25,414 nucleotides of DNA from Myxococcota bacterium (GCA_041288095.1 JBGGMJ010000069.1:1-25414), one strand, 5' to 3'. Shown: positions 10,148-20,509, counted from the first letter of the stretch. Numbers and translations are program-made. The notes: generated by a model from the letters alone, not told the origin.

Positions 10148-10176
10148 CAGTCGGCTATCGGCTATCGCTTCCGACT
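10148..10176. repeat. Short heptamer repeat (cagtcgg ctatcgg ctatcgc) within a weak hairpin between convergent genes
   Basis: Three 7-bp units at 10148-10168. AGTCGG (10149-10154) can pair with CCGACT (10171-10176). Confidence 0.45.
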
Positions 10177-11756
10177 CAGTGCTCTTCGTACAGATAGCCT
10201 GCTTGCTTCGCCCAGCGGATGACGCTGTCTCGGTACGCCGTGCCGTCCTTGCCGCGATCCAGGAACACGAACTCTGATTTGTACTTCTTGCCGGGCTCAC
10301 CAATGTACGTGGTGATCACCACACCCTGATTCTTCTGGGCCGTGTAAGCGACGCGCTCGAGCACCGCATCCAGGCTGGCCTTGTCCTTGAATACCATCTG
10401 GCGGTGGCAGAACTCGGGAAAGCCGAGCTGCGTAGCGATGACCGTTGGGGTCGAGACCGCGGTGCGGCGCGGGTTGCACTCGATGAAGTCCACATCACCA
10501 TCGACATCGCTGATGCGGGCGTCGATGCCCAGGTGGCCGCGGAAGCCGACGCGCTGCGCGAAGTCCGCGAACGGTTTCATGGCGCGAGCGTAAGCGTCCT
10601 GGATGCGCGAGCGGTCGCCGGGGATGGCGTTGCCGACGTGGCTCACGCCGTGCTCCATCTCCTGCGTGCTCGACGAGATGAGGGTCGCGCCGCGCTCGCC
10701 GCAGTGGAACAGGAAGCTGATGTCCTCGCCGGGCACCCACTGCTGCACCTGAATGCGGTCGGTTGCCTCCAGCGCGGCCACGCGCTTCTTGAGGTCGTCG
10801 ACATCGTTGACGAACTTCACGCCGGAGCCGCCCGCCGAATACTCCGCCTTGAGGATCAACGGGGTACCGACCGGGATGCGCGTATAGTCGATCTTGCCGG
10901 CGATGTTGTTGTGGTAGGTCTTCGGCACCGGGACGCCAAGGCGCTGACAGATGTTCACGCCGTCCAGCTTGTTGTTGAGCACCTTGCTCCAGGCGACCGA
11001 CTTCTTGTCGACGTGCTGGGTGTCGCGCATGAACATCTCGACGGGGCCGTACTCACGTTCGATCTCGGGGCGATGTTTGCGGAACTCGCTCTCCCGCATG
11101 ATGTACGGATTCGGCAGTCCGGCTTTCGCGCGCGACTTGCGAATGGCGTCGATACCGACCTGCTGCATGCGGTCCGGTAACACCACGATGTCGGAGGTGT
11201 TGGTCGAGATGCCCATGCCGCGGCCCGCATAGTCCTCGGCGCCGTAAATCAACTTCGTGTCGATATCGAGCGCGGTCATGTCGAAGTAGATGACGTTCTT
11301 CGGATGCACATCCACGAGGTGCGCGAGCGCCGCGCTGACGCCGGCACCGGCGTGTCCGAGCCACGCGTCGCCGCGTACCCACGCTTCGGCTCCCTCGCGC
11401 GCGGCGTACGTCACACCTGGCAGAATCTGTAGGCGCTGGCTGAAGGCTCTGACGGTCGCATTGGACAGGCCACCCAGCAGCTTCTCTTGGGCGCGGACGT
11501 CGGGTCTCTTGGCGAGGCCGATGAGCGATACGACGTCGAAGCGGACGAGACGCTCGGTGGCAACGGGGTCGAGGTCGGCGACCGAGAGGCTGGGGGCCGG
11601 CCCGCTTTGCATGGCCGCGACGTTCATCGTAGTGGGCGGAAGGTGACCTTGAGGCGATGGGGAAACCCTCGGCGTCGGATCAGCGTTCGTCGCGGGGAGA
11701 GTCGTGTACTGAATGGGACGCAAGGCCCCTTGATCAGCCTTTGAGCTGCCTTCCAT
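10176..11756 (-). CDS. ATP-grasp domain protein (putative amide/peptide ligase) with Pro/Ser/Thr-rich N-terminal extension
   Basis: ATP-grasp motifs LGVPVPKT, LILKAEYSAGGSGVKFV, QVQQWVPG, GFRGHLGIDA and FIECNPR. Substrate unknown. Confidence 0.8.
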   Translation of the reverse strand: MEGSSKADQGALRPIQYTTLPATNADPTPRVSPSPQGHLPPTTMNVAAMQSGPAPSLSVADLDPVATERLVRFDVVSLIGLAKRPDVRAQEKLLGGLSNATVRAFSQRLQILPGVTYAAREGAEAWVRGDAWLGHAGAGVSAALAHLVDVHPKNVIYFDMTALDIDTKLIYGAEDYAGRGMGISTNTSDIVVLPDRMQQVGIDAIRKSRAKAGLPNPYIMRESEFRKHRPEIEREYGPVEMFMRDTQHVDKKSVAWSKVLNNKLDGVNICQRLGVPVPKTYHNNIAGKIDYTRIPVGTPLILKAEYSAGGSGVKFVNDVDDLKKRVAALEATDRIQVQQWVPGEDISFLFHCGERGATLISSSTQEMEHGVSHVGNAIPGDRSRIQDAYARAMKPFADFAQRVGFRGHLGIDARISDVDGDVDFIECNPRRTAVSTPTVIATQLGFPEFCHRQMVFKDKASLDAVLERVAYTAQKNQGVVITTYIGEPGKKYKSEFVFLDRGKDGTAYRDSVIRWAKQAGYLYEEH

Positions 11757-11925: not shown

Positions 11926-13818
11926 TCAGGCGAACAGCGGGGCGTCCGTCGGCGGCCGGGCGGGCCCTGGAATTCCCACGGCGTCAGCGGCCTCGGCCAC
12001 GGTCCGAACCTCGACGGAATCGACGCCGAAGAGGTCGGTGGCGGCCTTGAGCCAACCGATGCGGGCCGCTTGGAAGGTCGTATCCGGCGTGAAGTAGACA
12101 TTATGCGCGCGGTAGTAAATGCGCAGCGCCTTCTCCATGCCGAGGCCCTGGACCACGCGCGCTTGCGAGGTGCGGTTCACGCCACCTTCGGCGAGCAAAT
12201 AGAAGAAGTTGTTGGCAATGCCCGAGTTCCAGTGGACGCCGCCGTTGTCGGCGCTGCCCGTGTAACGGGTGCGGTAGTTGTCGCGCGACGACTTGTCCTT
12301 CGTCGGGTCGTTCATGTAGCGGATGGCGTCGTCGGGAATGTTCGGGGTGTAGCTGTCCTCGAAGAGCAGATAGTCGCGCAGGACGCCCGCGCCGCGCGCG
12401 CCGCGCAGAAACCAGTTGAAACCGGCGGCGCCGATGACGTCGGAGCCCGCTTCGTTCAGCGCGCCGGACTCGCCGCGATAGATGAGGCGGCTCGTTGCGT
12501 CGGTGAGACCGTGGGTGGCTTCGTGACCGCCGGTGTCGGAGTCGGTTTGCGACAGGTTCTCGCCGCCGTCACCGTCGCCGTAGTTCATGGTCTCGCCGTC
12601 CCAGAAGGCGTTGGCGTAGTTGTTGTAGACGTGGACGTTCGAGAGGAGGCGCTTGCCGCGGTCGTCGAGTGAGTTGCGGCCGAAGATCTCGCGCAGATAC
12701 TTGAGGTACTGCACGGCGGCGTATTGCGCGTCGACGGCATCGCGAACGCGCGCGTCGTCACCGGGGCCGGCCCAGCGGTTGTCGTTGTCCGTGAAAACGG
12801 TGTTGCGTGAGCCCGAGCCGCCGGCGCCGTTGTGGGCGTCGCGCGTCTCGGCGTCGTTGTGGGTCGGATCGCGCAGGACGTAGCCGTCGCCGTCGCGCGT
12901 CGTGGTGAGCGGGACGTTGCCGCTGAAGATCGAGTTGCCGGTGCCCTCGGCGGGCACGTCGCGTCCGGTCCGGGTGGCGGCGATGCCCTGGTTGCGGGCC
13001 TCGCTCACCTGGCGCGTCGCCTGCTCGTGGCGGGCCCAGGTGCGGTCGCTGAAAGTGAGAGGTAAGAGCTCACCGCTGTGCGCGTCGACGAAGTAGTGAG
13101 TGCGTCGCGGCTTGCCGTCCGCGAAGGCGGATAGTGCGATATAGTGGGCGAGGCGGAACTCGCCATCGTCGAGCTTGACGACCACGAGGCTAGGGCCGTG
13201 CGTGCGCTCGGGGATCGCGGCGAAGGCGCTGACCGCGGTAACCATCGACGAGTCCTCGCTCATGCGCGGCTTGGTATCGAGCGAGAGGTCGTTGGGGAGG
13301 GTGCCGCTGGTGACGTCGCGCACGGTGCCGTCTTGCCCCAAATGAGTGACCACTTCGCTGCCGAAGATGGGGACGCCGTCGTAGGTGCGAGCGAGGCGGA
13401 CGTTGGCGCGGCCGAGCTCGTCGCGGAAGGCGAGGCGTGGAGCAAAGCCGTGCGCCGAGCCGATGACGCGGGACTGCAGCGCCGTGAGGCTCGCCATGGT
13501 GGCGGCGACGGCTTCGCGCTCGGACATGCGGACGTAGTCGAAGTTGGGGCCGAAGATTTCGCTGGCGGAAAGGACGGCGAGGGAGCGACCGAGGTTGTCG
13601 GTCGCGGCGACGTTGACCGCGGACGGCCGAGCAGCGAGCTCCGCTTGGCGGATGGCCGAGGACCGAACGCCGATCACCGAGGGCCGATCGCCGTTTGCCG
13701 AGGACCGAACACCGATCACCGAGGGCCGATCACCGATTGCCGATGACCGACTACCGATGGCCGAGTGCCGAACACCGACTGCCGACAGCCGATTGCCGAT
13801 CCGACTCACGTCCGTCAT
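11926..13818 (-). CDS. M4 (thermolysin-like) zinc metalloprotease, copy 4
   Basis: FTP/PepSY-like propeptide (DELGRANVRL, YFVDAHSG), NAFW, HEATH, GALNEAGSD and GGVHWNSG. No hydrophobic signal peptide; the N-terminus is encoded by a 7-bp repeat. Confidence 0.93.
   Translation of the reverse strand: MTDVSRIGNRLSAVGVRHSAIGSRSSAIGDRPSVIGVRSSANGDRPSVIGVRSSAIRQAELAARPSAVNVAATDNLGRSLAVLSASEIFGPNFDYVRMSEREAVAATMASLTALQSRVIGSAHGFAPRLAFRDELGRANVRLARTYDGVPIFGSEVVTHLGQDGTVRDVTSGTLPNDLSLDTKPRMSEDSSMVTAVSAFAAIPERTHGPSLVVVKLDDGEFRLAHYIALSAFADGKPRRTHYFVDAHSGELLPLTFSDRTWARHEQATRQVSEARNQGIAATRTGRDVPAEGTGNSIFSGNVPLTTTRDGDGYVLRDPTHNDAETRDAHNGAGGSGSRNTVFTDNDNRWAGPGDDARVRDAVDAQYAAVQYLKYLREIFGRNSLDDRGKRLLSNVHVYNNYANAFWDGETMNYGDGDGGENLSQTDSDTGGHEATHGLTDATSRLIYRGESGALNEAGSDVIGAAGFNWFLRGARGAGVLRDYLLFEDSYTPNIPDDAIRYMNDPTKDKSSRDNYRTRYTGSADNGGVHWNSGIANNFFYLLAEGGVNRTSQARVVQGLGMEKALRIYYRAHNVYFTPDTTFQAARIGWLKAATDLFGVDSVEVRTVAEAADAVGIPGPARPPTDAPLFA
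13656..13800. repeat. Degenerate 7-bp tandem repeat (CCGANNN)x20 inside the 5' end of protease copy 4
   Basis: Twenty units in exact 7-bp register from 13656 to 13795 (one is CCGT-), plus a partial unit. Includes a 42-bp higher-order duplication (13656-13697 vs 13698-13739, 3 mismatches). Confidence 0.92.
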
Positions 13819-13822
13819 GGCG

Positions 13823-15706
13823 TTAGCTCACCAATCCTGCGGTCACGGTTTGCGCTTCGATGCCCACCGCGCTCGCCGCCGCCCGCACCGTGCGTAGCTC
13901 GGCCGAATCGCGGCCGTACAAGTCTTCAGCCGCGCGCTCCCACGCCGCGCGGGCCTGCGCGAAGGTGGTGTTGGGGGTGAAGTAGACGGTGTTGGCGCGG
14001 TAGTAGATGCGCAGCGCCTTCTCCATGCCGACGCCCTGAGCGATGCGCTGCCCCGAGGTGGGGTTCGCGCCGCCGTTGGCGAGCAGGTAGAAGAAGTTGT
14101 TCGGGACGCCCGAGTTGATGTGGACGCCGCCGCGGTCTTGTTCGCCGCGGTACATGGTGCTCACGTGATCGCGCGAGTACATCTCGCTGGTCGGGTTGCG
14201 GCGGTCGCGCGAGGGCGCATCCATGTAGCGCAAAGCGTCGCCGCTGATGCTGGGCGTGATCGCGCTCTCGCCGATCATGTAGTCGGTGGCGATGCCCTGA
14301 TCGCGGCGGCCACGCAGGAACCAGGACAGACCAGCGCTGCCCATGATGTCGGCGCCGGCCTCGTTCAAGGCTCCGGACTCACCGCGGTAGATCAAGCGGC
14401 TGGTGTTGGAGATGAGGCCATGCGTGATCTCGTGGCCGGCGATGTCGGGGTCGACCATCGGCCCGGCGACGCGACCGTCGCCGTCGCCGTAATTGACGCT
14501 CGTGCCGTCCCAATACGCGTTCACCAGGTTCCGGCGAACGTGCACGTTCGAGATGATGCGCGCGCCACGGTCGTCGATCGAGTTACGGCCGAACATCTCA
14601 CGCAGGTACCGGAGGTAGCTGACCGCCGAGTAGTGGGCGTCGATGCCGGCGCGTTGCCGCTCGTTGTCACCTGCCTCACCCCAGATGTTGTTGGTGTCGG
14701 TGATCGGCTGACCACCGTTGCCACGGCCGCCGAAGATGCCACCGAGTCCGCCAAAGCCACCGAACATACCCTGGGCGTTGCCGGCGTCGCGGGTTTCGCT
14801 GCCACTCGCCGGGTCGCGCAAGATGTAGCCGTTCATGCTGCCGCGCGAGGTCGCGAGCGGGACGACACCCGAGTAGATCGAGTTGCCATGGCCGGCCGGG
14901 ATGCTGGGCGCGGCGGCTTGCGGACGCAGCGAGAAGCCGGTGGTCGCGCGGCTGCCCAGGTGCGTGCGCGTGCGCTCGATCTCGTCTTCGTCGAGGAAAC
15001 CGCCGGCTTCGTCGAAGCCGAGCGGCAACACCTGGCCGGTCTGCGCGTCGACGAATACGTTGGTGCGGCGCGGCGGCAGATCCGCCGGCTCGATGGTGGC
15101 GGTCACGTGGTAGGCCAACCGGTATTCGCCGTCGTCACCCTGGACGATGGCGAGCTCGGCTTTGCCGCTCTGGGTCGGCGTCGCGCCGAGGGACGCGATA
15201 GCGGTCGCTTTGGCGGCGTCCGCCGAGACGCGCGCGTTCATGTCGAGCGGCAGACGCGCGGGGATGGCGGCGCCCGTCATCGATGCGACGCGACCTTGCT
15301 CGTCGAGATGAGCGATGGCTTGGGCACCGAAGATAGGCACGCCGTTGTAGGTGCGATCCATGCGCACGTGGCTGCGGCCGAGCTCGTCGCGAAACGCCTG
15401 CGACGGCACGAAGTCGTGCGCGTTGCCGACGAAGCCGGTGCTCGCGACGTTGCCGCGCGCGGCTGCGAGCGCGGCGGTGGTGACATTGACCGCCTCGGTC
15501 TCGCTCATGCGGGCGTAGCGAAACTGCGCACCGAACGCGAGAGCGCTCTTCTGTGGCGCCGCCGGTCCGCTGAAGCGGGCAGCCGGGGGCAGCTCGAAGG
15601 GCAGGGGCGTGCCGTCGAGAGCAGAGGGCGTCATGTCGACGACGACCGCTGGTTGGTGCGGGGCGATGGGCGAAGTGCGAACGGGGCCGATGGGATCGCT
15701 AGCCAT
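13823..15706 (-). CDS. M4 (thermolysin-like) zinc metalloprotease, copy 3
   Basis: Start ATG 15706 with GAGGA RBS (alternative TTG 15721). NAYW, HEITH, GALNEAGAD and GGVHINSG. No signal peptide. Confidence 0.93.
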   Translation of the reverse strand: MASDPIGPVRTSPIAPHQPAVVVDMTPSALDGTPLPFELPPAARFSGPAAPQKSALAFGAQFRYARMSETEAVNVTTAALAAARGNVASTGFVGNAHDFVPSQAFRDELGRSHVRMDRTYNGVPIFGAQAIAHLDEQGRVASMTGAAIPARLPLDMNARVSADAAKATAIASLGATPTQSGKAELAIVQGDDGEYRLAYHVTATIEPADLPPRRTNVFVDAQTGQVLPLGFDEAGGFLDEDEIERTRTHLGSRATTGFSLRPQAAAPSIPAGHGNSIYSGVVPLATSRGSMNGYILRDPASGSETRDAGNAQGMFGGFGGLGGIFGGRGNGGQPITDTNNIWGEAGDNERQRAGIDAHYSAVSYLRYLREMFGRNSIDDRGARIISNVHVRRNLVNAYWDGTSVNYGDGDGRVAGPMVDPDIAGHEITHGLISNTSRLIYRGESGALNEAGADIMGSAGLSWFLRGRRDQGIATDYMIGESAITPSISGDALRYMDAPSRDRRNPTSEMYSRDHVSTMYRGEQDRGGVHINSGVPNNFFYLLANGGANPTSGQRIAQGVGMEKALRIYYRANTVYFTPNTTFAQARAAWERAAEDLYGRDSAELRTVRAAASAVGIEAQTVTAGLVS

Positions 15707-15717
15707 GAGAATTTTCC

Positions 15718-17616
15718 TCAACCAACAAGAGTGGCGCCGCCTGGGGCGGCTTGGGGTGCTTCGATGCCGACCGCGGTGGCGGCATCACGAACGGTCGCAA
15801 GCTCGGCGGAATCGGCGCCGTAGAGATCGGCGGCCGCCTTCTCCCAACCAACCCGCGCCTGCGCGAAGGTGGTGCTCGGCGTGAAGTAGACCGTGTGCGC
15901 GCGGTAGTAGATGCGCAGCGCCTTCTCCATGCCGATGCCCTTCTCGATCTTGAGCTTCGAGGTCGAGTTCTCGCCGCCGGCCGCGAGCAGGAAGAAGAAG
16001 TTGTTGGCGATGCCGGAGTTGATGTGGACGCCGCCGTTGTCGCCGCCGCCCTTGTAGAGATCTTTGTAGTTGTCGCGCGAGTAGTTGGTGTTGCCGCGGG
16101 TTGCCTTGTCGCGCGTCGGATTGTCCATGTAGCGCCAGGCGTCGCCTTCCTTGCCGGGCGTGAACGAGTCCTCGCCGAGCAAGTAGTCGCGGTCGATGCC
16201 CTGATCTTTCATGCCGCGCATGAACCAGGAGAGACCGGCGCTGCCGATGATGTCCGAGCCGGCTTCGTTCAAGGCGCCGGACTCGTTGCGGTAGATGAGC
16301 CCGCTGGTGTGCTGCGTGAGGCCGTGCGTGATCTCATGGCCGCCGACGTCGCGGTCGACCATGGGCCCGGCGACGCGACCGTCACCGTCGCCGTAGTTCA
16401 TGGTGTCGCCGTCCCAGTAGGCGTTCACGAAGCTCTCGCGGACGTGGACGTTCGAGAGCAGCTGTTGCCCCTTACCGTCGATCGAGTCGCGCGCGAATAC
16501 CTGCTTGAGCAGGCCGAGGAACTGCACGGCGGCGTAGTGGGCGTCGATGCCGGCGCGTTGGCGGGCGTCGTCTCCGGCCTCGCCCCACTTGTTGTTGTCG
16601 TCGCCGAAGACCTTGTTCTCGGCGCCAGTGCCGCCCTCGCCGTTCATGGCGTCGCGAGTCTCGGTCTTGGCGGAGCCCGGGTCGCGCATCACGAACTTCC
16701 CGGAGGCGTCCTTGGTGGTGGCCAGCGGGACGACGCCAGAGTAGACCGAGCTGCCGGTCCCGTCCGCGATGACGGGCACCGGCTGCGGCGTTGGATTGCC
16801 GATGCCCGGGCCGCGCGGCAGTGATTTGCGTACCGCTTCGACGTGCTCCGGATCCGCGTAGCCGTGCAGCTCGTCGAAGGAGAGCGGCAGCATGGCGCCG
16901 CTGTGCGCATCGACGAAGTAGTTCATCTTGCTGGCGCCGGCCTCGTGACGCGCGAAGAGCACCACGTGATGGGCGAGGTGATAGGCGCCACTGTCGTCGG
17001 CGATGATCACGAGGCGCGAGCCGGCGGGCCGGGTCGGCTGTTTGCCGAAGGCGGCGAGCGCGGTCGCGAGCGCCGTGGCTTCGGAGACTGTCGGCTTGGT
17101 GTCGACGGGGAGGCGCGCCGGGAGCTTGGTGCCGGTGATGTCGGCGACCTTGTCCTCGGCTCCAAGATGGGAAACGACCTGCTCGCCGTAGATCGGCACG
17201 CCGTCATAGACGCGGTTCAAGCGGACGTTGACGCGGCCGAGCTCGTCCTTGAAGGCGAGCGCCGGCGCGAACCCGTGGGGCGATGAGGCGAAGCCGGCGC
17301 CGATGATCTTTGCCTTGACGGCGTTGAGGCTCGCGACGGTGGCGGCGAAGGCGCGCTCGTCGGTGAGCCCGACCACTTTGAACTGCGGGCCGAAGGCCTT
17401 GATGCCGGCGAGAGCCGAGATGGCGTCACCGACGCTCGAGGATTGCGTGGAGGCACCAGCGGACAGTGGCCGTGGGCGGATGAGCGACGCCGAGAGATCG
17501 AGAACGGGGGCGTCGGGAGCCTTGGCGGCTTTCGCGGACAGCGTGCCGCGGGGGGTGAAGCACGAGTCGGGCGCGAGCTTGGTGAAAACGGACACGAGGC
17601 TGCGGATGTCGTTCAT
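15718..17616 (-). CDS. M4 (thermolysin-like) zinc metalloprotease, copy 2
   Basis: Propeptide DELGRVNVRL and YFVDAHSG, then NAYW, HEITH, GALNEAGSD and GGVHINSG. No signal peptide. Confidence 0.93.
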   Translation of the reverse strand: MNDIRSLVSVFTKLAPDSCFTPRGTLSAKAAKAPDAPVLDLSASLIRPRPLSAGASTQSSSVGDAISALAGIKAFGPQFKVVGLTDERAFAATVASLNAVKAKIIGAGFASSPHGFAPALAFKDELGRVNVRLNRVYDGVPIYGEQVVSHLGAEDKVADITGTKLPARLPVDTKPTVSEATALATALAAFGKQPTRPAGSRLVIIADDSGAYHLAHHVVLFARHEAGASKMNYFVDAHSGAMLPLSFDELHGYADPEHVEAVRKSLPRGPGIGNPTPQPVPVIADGTGSSVYSGVVPLATTKDASGKFVMRDPGSAKTETRDAMNGEGGTGAENKVFGDDNNKWGEAGDDARQRAGIDAHYAAVQFLGLLKQVFARDSIDGKGQQLLSNVHVRESFVNAYWDGDTMNYGDGDGRVAGPMVDRDVGGHEITHGLTQHTSGLIYRNESGALNEAGSDIIGSAGLSWFMRGMKDQGIDRDYLLGEDSFTPGKEGDAWRYMDNPTRDKATRGNTNYSRDNYKDLYKGGGDNGGVHINSGIANNFFFLLAAGGENSTSKLKIEKGIGMEKALRIYYRAHTVYFTPSTTFAQARVGWEKAAADLYGADSAELATVRDAATAVGIEAPQAAPGGATLVG

Positions 17617-17634
17617 GGCGCTTGGACTCGGGTG

Positions 17635-17689
17635 TGAAAAGAACGGAAAGAAGAGAAGGCGCGCCGCGTGGTGGGCACGGCGCGCCTTC
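17635..17689 (-). terminator. Intrinsic terminator-like hairpin after protease copy 1
   Basis: Perfect 12-bp stem GAAGGCGCGCCG (17655-17666) / CGGCGCGCCTTC (17678-17689), followed on the minus strand by TCTTCTTTCCGTTCTTTT. Confidence 0.7.
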
Positions 17690-17696
17690 AGCGTTG

Positions 17697-19568
17697 CTAT
17701 GCGACGAGCTTGAGCTCGGCGCGAGGACGGGCTTCGATGCCGACCGCGTTCGCGGCCGCGATCACCGTCTTGGTCTCGACCGAGTCGGCGCCGTAGAGAT
17801 CGGTCGCCGCCTTGATCCAGCCTTCACGCGCCTGCGCGAAGGTGGTGCTCGCGGTGGTGTAGGTGACGTGGGCGCGGTAGTAGATCTTGAGCGCCTTCTC
17901 CATGCCGATGCCCTTCTCGACCTTCATCTGCGAGGTGCGATTGGTGCCGCCCTGGCTGAGGAGGAAGAAGAAGTTGTTGGCGATGCCGGAGTTCAGGTGC
18001 ACGCCGCCGTTGTCGCCGCCGCCGGTGTAACGCGACTTGTAGTTGTCGCGTGAGTACATGTCGCCGCTGCGCTGCTCTTTGTCGCGCATCGGATCGTTCA
18101 TGTAGCGGAGCGCGTCGCCGGGCGTCGCCGGCGTCCAGCAGTCTTCACCGATGAGGAAGTCGGTCTCGATGCCGGTGTCCTTCATGCCGCGGAGGAACCA
18201 GCTGAAGCCGGCGCTGCCGAGGATGTCCGACGCGGCTTCGTTCAGCGCGCCCGACTCACCACGGTAGACGAGGCCGTTGGCGGCCTGCGTGAGGCCGTGC
18301 ATTGGCTCGTGGCTCGCGACGTCCTTGTCGACCAGGGGGCCGGCGGTCTTGTTGTCGCCGTCGCCGTAGTTCATCGTCGAGCCGTCCCAGTACGCGTTGA
18401 CGTAGTTCGAGCGCACGTGGACGTTCGACAAGAGGCGCATGCCCTTGCCGTCGAGGGAGTCGCGGCCGAAGAAGTCCTTGAGGAACTTCAGGAACTGCAC
18501 GGCGCCGAACTGCGCGTCGATGCCGGCGCGCTGGCGCACGTCGTCCGAGGTCTCGCCCCACTTGTTGTTGTTGTCGCTGATGACGACGTTGCCCGAGCCC
18601 GCGCCACCCGAGCCGTTGCGCGCGTCGCGCGTCTCGGCGTTATTGGCTTGCGGGTCACGCAGCAAGAACTTGCCGTTCTCTTCGGTGGTCGAGAGCGCGA
18701 CGTTGCCCAGGTAGATGCTGTTGCCGGTGCCTTCGACGGCGGAGCCGCTGAAGCCCTTGCCCTGCGACGACGCCTGCTCGCGGAAGCCTTGGAGGCGGAA
18801 GTCCGGGATGAAGCCGCCGTGCTCGTTGAACGTGAGCGGCAAGACTTCGCCGCTGTGCGCGTCCACGAAGTAGTGCATCTTGCGTGGGGCCTTGGCGTCG
18901 CCGTAGGTCGCCACCGTGACGTGGTGCGCGAGGTGATAGGCGCCGTCATCGGTCTTGGCGATGAGCAGCGTCGGGCCGCCGACTTGCTCGGCCTTGCCGT
19001 CGAAGCAAGCGCGCGCGGTCGCCAAAGCGGACTCGGCCGACTGCGTCGCCTTGGTGTCGACCGGGAGCTGCGCCGGCAGGGTGTTACCGGTGAAGTCCGT
19101 GGCCTTGCCGCTGGCGTCGAGGTGGCTGATGACCTGCTCACCGAACACGGGCAGCCCGTCGTAGAGGCGGTTCATGCGGACGTGGGTGAGACCGAGGTCG
19201 TCGGTGGTGGCGAGCGCCGGCGCGAAGCCGTGCTTGCTGGGGGCGAAGGGGAGGCGCGACTGCAGCGCGGCCAGGGCGGTGTGCACCGCGGCGACGGCCT
19301 TGCTCTCGCTCATGTTGACGAACTTGAAGCTCGGGCCGAACGCGGCGGCTCCGGAGAGCAGCTTGAGCGCGCCACCCATGTTAGCCGCTGAAAGGCTCTC
19401 GTCCATCGCCATCGGAGCGGGTCGGCTGGCCGCGGCGGCAAGACCGGAGACGGGGGCTTGCGGGGCCATCGCCGAAGCCTTCTTGGGCGCGCTGACCCCC
19501 GACATGGCGCCGCCGGTGACGGCGACCTTGGCAATGGAGGTTTGATTGACGCGGATAGTGTCGGTCAT
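17697..19568 (-). CDS. M4 (thermolysin-like) zinc metalloprotease, copy 1
   Basis: Propeptide DDLGLTHVRM and YFVDAHSG, then NAYW, HEPMH, GALNEAASD and GGVHLNSG. No signal peptide. Confidence 0.93.
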   Translation of the reverse strand: MTDTIRVNQTSIAKVAVTGGAMSGVSAPKKASAMAPQAPVSGLAAAASRPAPMAMDESLSAANMGGALKLLSGAAAFGPSFKFVNMSESKAVAAVHTALAALQSRLPFAPSKHGFAPALATTDDLGLTHVRMNRLYDGLPVFGEQVISHLDASGKATDFTGNTLPAQLPVDTKATQSAESALATARACFDGKAEQVGGPTLLIAKTDDGAYHLAHHVTVATYGDAKAPRKMHYFVDAHSGEVLPLTFNEHGGFIPDFRLQGFREQASSQGKGFSGSAVEGTGNSIYLGNVALSTTEENGKFLLRDPQANNAETRDARNGSGGAGSGNVVISDNNNKWGETSDDVRQRAGIDAQFGAVQFLKFLKDFFGRDSLDGKGMRLLSNVHVRSNYVNAYWDGSTMNYGDGDNKTAGPLVDKDVASHEPMHGLTQAANGLVYRGESGALNEAASDILGSAGFSWFLRGMKDTGIETDFLIGEDCWTPATPGDALRYMNDPMRDKEQRSGDMYSRDNYKSRYTGGGDNGGVHLNSGIANNFFFLLSQGGTNRTSQMKVEKGIGMEKALKIYYRAHVTYTTASTTFAQAREGWIKAATDLYGADSVETKTVIAAANAVGIEARPRAELKLVA

Positions 19569-19762: not shown

Positions 19763-20509
19763 TTACGTCGGGAAGGTGACGGCCGGTGGGGGAAACGCTG
19801 GTTTTGCCAGCAAGTAGCCCTGTCCAAAGTGGACCCCGGCATCGCGCACGGCGAGAAAATCGTCGCGTTCTTCGATACCTTCGGCGACCACGCGGCTCCC
19901 CATGTCGTTACACAGGGTGACGATCGAGCGCACGAGCCTGCGGGTTCGCTCGTTCTTACTGATGCCGTGCACCAGGTCCATGTCGAGCTTGACGATGTCC
20001 GGGACCAGCTCGGCGATGTAGCGCAGGTTCGAATAGCCGGCGCCGAAGTCGTCGATGACCAAGCGGACGCCCTTGCCGCGGATCTCCTGGAGGACACTGC
20101 TGCAGAAGGAGAAGTGCGAGAGCGGTACGGACTCGGTGATCTCGAGGTAGACCTGATCGTCGTGAAAGAAGATGGGGTCGTCGGTGCGCACGAGCCAGCC
20201 TTCGTCGAACTCGTTGGGGTTGACGTTGACGAAGAGCGGCCTGCCGGGACAACCCTCGATGGTCAGTTGGCGCAACAGATGGCCGAACTCGCCCATGGCC
20301 TTGTCTTCGATAGCGGCCGCGAGGAGCTCGAGCGGGCCCTTGAAGTCCGGCGACTTGCTGCGCGCCAGCGCCTCGTAGGCGAAGGTCTTGCCGGTGTGGA
20401 CGTCGACGATCGGCTGGTATGCGATGGACACCGCGCGCGTCGCGATGACGTCGCGGATGGAGCCTGCTCCGGGAGCCTTCGGGGTGTCGGAGCGTCCAAA
20501 GAGGGCCAT
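19763..20509 (-). CDS. Stand-alone EAL-domain c-di-GMP phosphodiesterase
   Basis: YQPIV, YEALAR, FVNV, LEITES, IDDFGAGYS, VKLD, VAEGIE and QGY are all present, so the catalytic set looks intact. Confidence 0.93.
   Translation of the reverse strand: MALFGRSDTPKAPGAGSIRDVIATRAVSIAYQPIVDVHTGKTFAYEALARSKSPDFKGPLELLAAAIEDKAMGEFGHLLRQLTIEGCPGRPLFVNVNPNEFDEGWLVRTDDPIFFHDDQVYLEITESVPLSHFSFCSSVLQEIRGKGVRLVIDDFGAGYSNLRYIAELVPDIVKLDMDLVHGISKNERTRRLVRSIVTLCNDMGSRVVAEGIEERDDFLAVRDAGVHFGQGYLLAKPAFPPPAVTFPT

Follow-up and report, generated by a model that had tools for sequence, protein, structure and literature searches.

The 25.4-kb window analysed here is a whole contig (G000:C69) of a 5.85-Mb metagenome bin, in 212 contigs and about 90% complete, whose source is an uncultured soil myxobacterium. 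The closest public relatives of the window are metagenome bins labelled Myxococcota. Four genes encoding M4 (thermolysin-like) metalloproteases of 623-632 amino acids (aa) lie head to tail on its minus strand at 11926-19568, and we refer to them, in the direction in which they are read, as paralogues D, C, B, and A. Our subject is the way these proteins begin, and how they may leave the cell.

Paralogue D (17697-19568, minus strand) is read from a 623-aa open reading frame (ORF), and C (15718-17616, minus) from one of 632 aa that begins MNDIRSLVS, a start kept in homologues P0005, P0008, and P0009. For B, the longest ORF (13823-15721, minus; 632 aa) opens with TTG. The ATG at codon 6, position 15706, is the likely start of this gene (MASDP...), because GAGGA lies 7-8 nt upstream of it and homologues P0018 and P0020 begin MASD; the likely form of B (MASDPIGPVRTS) spans 13823-15706 (minus) and has 627 aa. 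Paralogue A (11926-13818, minus; 630 aa) starts MTDVSRIG and has orthologues P0014 and L016. D and C are separated by 80 bp and B and A by 4 bp, and the stop of C overlaps the long TTG reading of B.

All four products match the Pfam families FTP (E 1.6e-8 to 2.4e-15, 34.7-56.5 bits, cut-off 21), Peptidase_M4 (E 1e-34 to 1e-36, 117-124 bits, cut-off 22.4), and Peptidase_M4_C (E 5e-44 to 2e-46, 150-159 bits, cut-off 24.4). A weak PepSY match is found in B alone (E 0.0029, below cut-off), and Pfam shows no C-terminal accessory domain in any of the four. The zinc motif HExxH reads HEATH/HEITH/HEITH/HEPMH across the paralogues, HEPMH being that of D. The downstream glutamate motif, of NExxSD type, reads NEAGSD/NEAGAD/NEAGSD/NEAASD, and the catalytic histidine motif GGVHWNSG/GGVHINSG/GGVHINSG/GGVHLNSG. 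The first-pass annotation had described four tandem 623-632-aa M4 paralogs with propeptide, HExxH, NExxxD, and GGVHxNSG and without accessory domains; both ORFs and Pfam agree with this, as do the translations with the N-terminal sequences that it gave.

Residues 122-611 of D align to residues 89-547 of full-length thermolysin (5a3y_A, E 6e-58), and the mature domain matches secreted thermolysin and neutral proteases at E 6e-58 to 1e-50. In an alignment of 47 sequences, H420, E421, H424, E444, and H524 are invariant; the HEPMH motif occupies residues 420-424 (18297-18311, minus). An AlphaFold2 model of D has a predicted template modelling score (pTM) of 0.83. Its predicted local distance difference test score (pLDDT) is below 50 over residues 1-63 and over a linker at 259-272, and the remainder is folded, with a folded beta-rich propeptide at 113-236. 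D can be divided into a leader (residues 1-63; 19380-19568), a propeptide (about 64-272; 18753-19379), a mature domain (about 273-608; 17745-18752), with the thermolysin alignment running from about residue 275, and a C-terminal tail (609-623), all on the minus strand. A glycine-rich insertion (GGFGGLGGIFGGRGNGG) at about residues 322-345 of B (14700-14760, minus), in the N-terminal part of the mature domain, is common to B and its orthologues and missing from the other paralogues. On these sequence grounds, the four genes encode M4 zymogens whose catalytic motifs are intact and whose activity is predicted.

Leaders of predicted disorder in place of signal peptides

M4 proteases are textbook Sec-exported preproenzymes. 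Signal peptides were sought with a Kyte-Doolittle hydropathy heuristic, not SignalP, which takes the best 10-residue mean within 45 residues. It was applied to all 25 in-frame ATG, GTG, and TTG codons among the first 130 codons of the four ORFs (6 in A, 8 in B, 3 in C, and 8 in D). By this measure no Sec, twin-arginine (Tat), or lipoprotein signal appears from any start of A-D: the best value over the 25 starts is at most 1.76, against 2.45-3.31 in 5/5 envelope proteins of the window used as controls (a TonB-dependent receptor and four periplasmic binding proteins). Neither a twin-arginine (RR) motif nor a hydrophobic stretch is present in A-D. The earlier claim that none of the four has a hydrophobic signal peptide therefore stands, and it survives the check on alternative starts, since no downstream start of A-D yields one.

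What stands in place of the signal, before the propeptide, is a leader of 60-90 residues. The low pLDDT of residues 1-63 of D agrees with the disorder expected of it. Between paralogues, the mature domain is 57-67% identical, the propeptide 39-48%, and the leader 13-27%; for the orthologues of D the values are 88-95%, 67-89%, and 56-73%, respectively. The duplication must accordingly predate the genus, and of the three parts the leader changes most rapidly. The description of the leaders as largely unalignable holds for overall identity between paralogues but not throughout, since short motifs recur: an M-x-D-x-I-R-x-N start, AP-x-AP-V/I, and RPxP. The starts of all four paralogues are conserved in their orthologues.

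The leader of A consists largely of a tandem repeat (13651-13792, minus) of 6.8 copies of a 21-nt unit, encoding 7 aa (S-A/V-I-G-x-R-x-S). Tandem Repeats Finder scores it 137 at period 21 and 186 at period 42, and its copy number differs in the orthologues P0014 and L016.

Having no known kind of export signal is what would be seen in regulatory or housekeeping enzymes that act in the cytoplasm and are never exported. Against this, the complete inhibitory and folding propeptide and the likeness to secreted thermolysin argue for an extracellular zymogen, and broad-specificity M4 activity in the cytoplasm would, from general knowledge of the family, be harmful. We consider a purely cytoplasmic function very improbable.

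A signal-less clade of myxobacterial M4 proteases

The missing signal is not confined to the array. All seven M4_C matches of this genome were read, and 6/6 full-length proteins are without signal, the seventh match being short and weak. The M4 genes outside the array, a 747-aa gene on contig C79 starting MAEPLSLNAPVS and one on contig C124, are both among those without signal. In the nearest 90%-identity clusters, a set that includes a few fragments, 0/120 contain among their first 70 residues a 9-residue stretch with a hydropathy above 2.21. Named members of these clusters come from Archangium, Hyalangium, Stigmatella (ADO74914.1), Corallococcus, Cystobacter, and Myxococcus. Myxococcus xanthus DK1622 itself has a member of the signal-less clade, ABF91389.1 (725 aa), which begins MTIRRTEGPKP; the Myxococcaceae relatives begin M-[ST]-I-R-R, yet are without the hydrophobic part.

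A search of 1.84 billion representatives returned 14,517 proteins at E 0.001 or better. Among the best 30 of the 50%-identity representatives, 28 are without signal and the other two are a grey and a signal-like protein, while the 134 among the matches listed that start with M comprise 63 signal-like, 25 grey, and 46 signal-less proteins. Near M4 relatives thus lack signals and distant ones carry them, so that the trait is clade-specific and the heuristic does detect M4 signals. Judged from sequence, the usual Sec signal is replaced by a leader of predicted disorder in a whole clade of myxobacterial M4 proteases. The trait had been taken as special to this array; it is instead a property of the clade, as the 120/120 clusters and 28/30 representatives show.

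The same comparisons bear on whether wrong starts, frameshifts, or assembly errors conceal ordinary signal peptides. A metagenome bin in 212 contigs with about 90% completeness gives some scope for this, as does the TTG with which the longest ORF of B begins. However, the four ORFs each begin at the first start codon past an in-frame stop, and no start downstream of these gives a signal. Independent assemblies and finished Myxococcus genomes also show the same N-termini, and the nearest clusters all behave alike. An artefact of this kind is extremely improbable.

In the literature searched, with many subscription papers outside its scope, signal-less FTP-type M4 proteases from myxobacteria are nowhere described. 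Nor was a locus tag or proteomic record of ABF91389.1 found there; the word 'thermolysin' does not occur in the supplement of PMC4158809. The existence of the clade implies that big hydrolases are either exported by a route or stored in a manner not described so far.

At the other end of the protein, the window clade (P0001-P0020 and the four paralogues) has a 12-18-residue extension past the last M4 helix that ends x-L-(V/I/F/L)-(G/A/S). These tails are encoded at 11926-11980 in A, 13823-13870 in B, 15718-15770 in C, and 17697-17745 in D (minus strand). The tail of the sister group ends T/S-L-R/V-R-K/R-A-A, and the Myxococcaceae members of the signal-less clade end AVGV(N/S/K), with no tail. 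The proteases might instead be exported by a different one-step system with C-terminal recognition, for instance a type I ABC exporter; the tail would then be the signal, and the leader would be unrelated to export. The conservation of the tail in the window clade and its different form in the sister group would suit such a system, and components of the type I secretion system are reported for all 17 Myxococcota genomes examined in a review (PMC10196010). But the tail cannot explain a clade-wide loss of signals, because the Myxococcaceae members have none. Furthermore, the proteases contain no RTX nonapeptide repeats, the window contains no ABC or membrane-fusion genes, and the tail of D is modelled with low confidence, its pLDDT falling from 66 to 48. 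We regard export of this type as improbable.

The order D-C-B-A is conserved in 2/3 related loci, and the third has D and C before its contig ends. The gene 195 bp upstream of D (19763-20509, minus) encodes a 248-aa EAL-domain protein (Pfam EAL, E 2e-46), and ORFs of similar size occupy this position in L016 (249 aa) and L017 (276 aa). Downstream of A, at a distance of 170 bp, lies a gene for a 526-aa ATP-grasp protein (10176-11756, minus; Pfam ATP-grasp_3, E 1.4e-12), the N-terminal 260 residues of which match no known family; the ORFs that follow the array in L015 and L016 (535 and 501 aa) are equated with it by position and size. The gap between D and C holds a terminator-like hairpin (17655-17689, minus) with a 14-bp stem of which 11 pairs are G-C, followed by TCTTCTTTCC. 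It is a consensus match only, and since the hairpin scan found 4 such sites against 8.1 expected in shuffles, it provides no evidence of function.

Candidate routes out of the cell

The four proteases may plausibly leave the cell by an unconventional route that is independent of Sec and Tat, although we stop short of calling this probable. The first-pass annotation had proposed export by a type III-like or other non-Sec route and a search for the corresponding genes. That search was productive: the genome has a non-flagellar type III core consisting of SctJ, L, N, Q, R, S, T, U, and V, a YscO-like protein, and TPR chaperones. SctV (contig C31) adjoins a PP2C phosphatase and a sigma factor, and SctU lies with a TPR chaperone on contig C41. 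The main cluster, on contig C92, comprises SctJ, a FliG-like protein, SctL, SctN (with T3SS_ATPase_C), YscO-like and SctP/FliK-like proteins, SctQ, FliO, SctR, SctS, SctT, and a second TPR chaperone. No secretin was found in the 45 kb of C92 examined, and the three secretin genes of the genome are on other contigs. A cluster without secretin resembles the needle-less type III secretion system (T3SS*) of M. xanthus as outlined in two reviews (PMC10433427, PMC12075869). Two further genes inside the type III cluster, at C92:11340-16788, encode candidate substrates or structural parts: one product has 779 aa and a DUF4781 domain, and the other, of 673 aa, begins MSLDRVGQGP and belongs to no family.

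The search for other systems gave two TadE-like genes on contig C27. VipB/TssC (PF05943) was found in 0/4 genomes of the genus (this one and three congeners) and Phage_sheath_1 (PF04984) was not found in this genome; with completeness of 84-97%, the type VI secretion system and contractile sheath are best described as not found rather than absent.

Flagellar export was also considered. The three congeners have a second FHIPEP gene in a full flagellar cluster, a few genes from the sister M4 gene. This cluster, whose genes were named from N-terminal sequence and order, contains flagellin, FliD, FlgE, FlhA, FlhB, FliPQR, MotAB, FliF, FliG, and FliI, and is flanked by an RND pump and an MFS-like gene (L018-L020, G066:C2:500001-560000). 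Flagella are unusual for Myxococcota, and the start of the leader is faintly like flagellin N-termini. In the present genome the cluster is absent between conserved flanks (G000:C79:14773-27697). A flagellar route cannot serve here, because the cluster is missing while the array is retained, and flagellar export of the array was rejected for this genome.

We place the type III apparatus first among the candidates, as no other one-step machine that reads the N-terminus was found. Export by it specifically is possible, if tentative, and some other Sec-independent export has a smaller share of the likelihood. The needle-less, non-flagellar apparatus would thread the unfolded chain with the disordered leader first. 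Once beyond the cytoplasm, the enzyme would be folded by its FTP/PepSY propeptide, which would afterwards be removed by cleavage in the disordered linker (residues 259-272 in D). Four proteases, as diverged as their mature domains indicate (57-67% identical), would thereby be released and would act on foreign protein. Departure from the cell at all is an inference, as are the route, the sequence of folding and cleavage, and the prey-lysis arsenal suggested by the first-pass annotation.

We also screened the genome for signal-less ORFs with disordered heads, to which Pfam was then applied. Further enzymes expected to work beyond the cytoplasm came to light in this way, which speaks mildly for the type III idea. 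The screen selected on composition and therefore shows that such proteins exist here, not how common they are. Two proteins with long disordered heads combine three PG_binding_1 domains with VanY (G000:C43:32936-34762) and LysM with PG_binding_1 and SLT (G000:C100:31595-33022). A third, short PG_binding_1 protein is encoded at G000:C197:7017-7199, and the PG_binding_1 proteins of the genome are 3/3 without signal; these could be exported lytic effectors or endolysin-like. A Peptidase_M64 protein likewise has a disordered head and no signal.

Two paralogous M36/M4-like metalloproteases of about 610-620 aa (G000:C90:14289-16154 and G000:C62:57964-59796) have HExxH, a weak M36/M4 match, a disordered head, and no signal. 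One of this pair begins MTIKRTSPS, like the MTIRR start of the Myxococcus M4 proteins. A link between the M36-like protease and MepA of M. xanthus was tried and dropped: only 6 close relatives were found in the large protein database, none of them named. A glucose/sorbosone dehydrogenase (GSDH; G000:C212:43999-45339, E 7e-88), of a family that is usually periplasmic, has a 110-residue head without hydrophobic segment. Finally, a 378-aa DUF1521 protein without signal is encoded at G000:C10:7744-8883 (E 1.9e-14). DUF1521 is described as the self-cleaving domain of the type III-secreted proteins NopE1 and NopE2 (PMC6506597), and by analogy this protein is a possible candidate for a genuine type III substrate of the genome. 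NCBIfam gave no closer family name for the DUF1521 protein, the M36-like proteins, or the ATP-grasp protein beside the array.

A broader proposal, which we rate as rather unlikely, is that T3SS* has as its substrates a class of lytic zymogens found throughout Myxococcota and recognizable by the disordered, signal-less leader, among them the M4 clade with ABF91389.1 and perhaps the M36-like, M64, VanY, and SLT proteins. T3SS* would push such zymogens unfolded to the periplasm or to the site of contact with prey, where their own propeptides would refold them. According to the reviews on T3SS*, prey lysis requires it, and none of its effectors is known (PMC10433427, PMC12075869); if the proposal is true, lytic zymogen substrates would account for that requirement. 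With a clade member in the model strain M. xanthus DK1622, the question whether ABF91389.1 is a T3SS* substrate can be addressed with existing mutants.

Several observations weigh against the type III reading. Four different contigs carry the array, SctV, SctU, and the main cluster of type III genes, and in four complete Myxococcus genomes a distance of 350-383 kb separates the M4 homologue from SctV of T3SS*. No small chaperone-like gene stands beside the array in the window. A naive composition model, trained on the N-termini of 10 ORFs of type III loci, one of which later proved to be a sigma factor, placed the six M4 leaders at percentiles 33, 38, 60, 61, 84, and 93 of 4,503 ORFs; the leaders were not ranked high, and the model was discarded as support. 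The leader itself has little reach: searched alone against the database it returned just 3 orthologues, and the idea that it is common to other protein families was abandoned after genome scans with a regular expression and a position matrix gave no convincing non-M4 match. Release by lysis, in the manner of endolysins, explains the signal-less peptidoglycan enzymes equally, and the call of missing signals depends on hydropathy instead of a trained predictor.

Co-occurrence does little for either side. Among 401 sampled Myxococcota genomes, one of them unpublished (G195), FHIPEP is present in 348 and M4_C in 180. An argument from co-occurrence is weak, and this too tells against the type III reading, because FHIPEP is so widespread and related genomes are not independent. 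A strong M4_C match without FHIPEP is seen in four genomes (G070, G097, G261, and G360). The last three have short protealysin-like M4 genes only, whereas G070, which is 99% complete, has two M4 genes of the long kind, each encoding a classical signal. These four genomes fit the type III idea and speak mildly for it, but they are few.

The proposal of non-Sec, type III-like export thus stands in part: there is no signal and a type III core is present, but adjacency and a chaperone are missing and the composition test failed. Nothing that directly ties the proteases to the type III system was found.

The main rival, and a serious one, is storage followed by release through lysis. The zymogens would be kept in the cytoplasm, inhibited by their propeptides, and become active when the producer lyses or breaks, whether in development, altruistically, or through vesicles, as in protealysin. 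The role of the leader would then lie elsewhere, perhaps in blocking premature folding or in controlling turnover. The conserved hydrophobic tail (L-V/I/F-G/A/S), which presumably resembles C-terminal degradation tags, would fit control of a cytoplasmic pool, and no link to any secretion apparatus was found. Short signal-less M4 genes of protealysin type do occur in Myxococcota, in G097, G261, and G360, and a paper entitled 'Protealysin is not secreted constitutively' is cited in PMC6778150. Several features point the other way. The long FTP propeptide is that of exported M4 enzymes, and the proteins group with thermolysin and bacillolysin, not with protealysin-like enzymes. A conserved extreme N-terminus on an otherwise fast-evolving disordered leader looks like a recognition signal. 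The four diverged copies, with their order kept across the genus, suggest selection for diverse extracellular substrates. We therefore regard storage, and with it such a role for the leader, as possible but on balance doubtful.

Comparison with known systems

The window proteins resemble thermolysin and bacillolysin (M4; PDB 5a3y, 1npc, 4b52) in their FTP-type propeptide, their M4 and M4_C domains, HExxH, and the downstream glutamate and histidine motifs. They differ from these enzymes in lacking a signal and in carrying the 60-90-residue disordered leader and a short conserved C-terminal tail.

FibA of M. xanthus (MXAN_6106) is likewise a myxobacterial M4 zymogen with FTP, M4, and M4_C, and is described as matrix-associated and experimentally extracellular in the sections of PMC3236237 that concern it. 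According to the same sections, FibA has a signal sequence of lipoprotein type at aa 1-24 and two C-terminal PPC domains (PMC3236237); the window proteins have neither. FibA is distinct from ABF91389.1, the M. xanthus member of the signal-less clade. A further myxobacterial protease is relevant here, the subtilisin-like PopC of M. xanthus, which reportedly has no signal peptide and yet is secreted, by a route not yet known. PopC shares with the window proteins the lack of a signal but belongs to a different protease family.

Protealysin-like enzymes (Serratia; PDB 2vqx) are also M4 proteases made without a signal and kept as an inactive precursor, which is stored in the cell and activated after lysis, as stated in part of PMC6778150. 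Protealysin (2vqx_A) matches D at E 5e-27. However, these enzymes have about 340-365 aa, with a short PPL propeptide (about 50 aa) and no FTP, in contrast to the 623-632 aa and FTP of the window proteins, and proteins of the PPL type with 'IVPPHxL' form a separate group in Myxococcota.

With regard to T3SS* of M. xanthus, the present genome has the same kind of core and a cluster without secretin. It differs in that the core genes are spread over at least three contigs, with nothing tying the M4 proteins to the apparatus. By analogy, signal-less lytic zymogens are what T3SS* effectors might look like.

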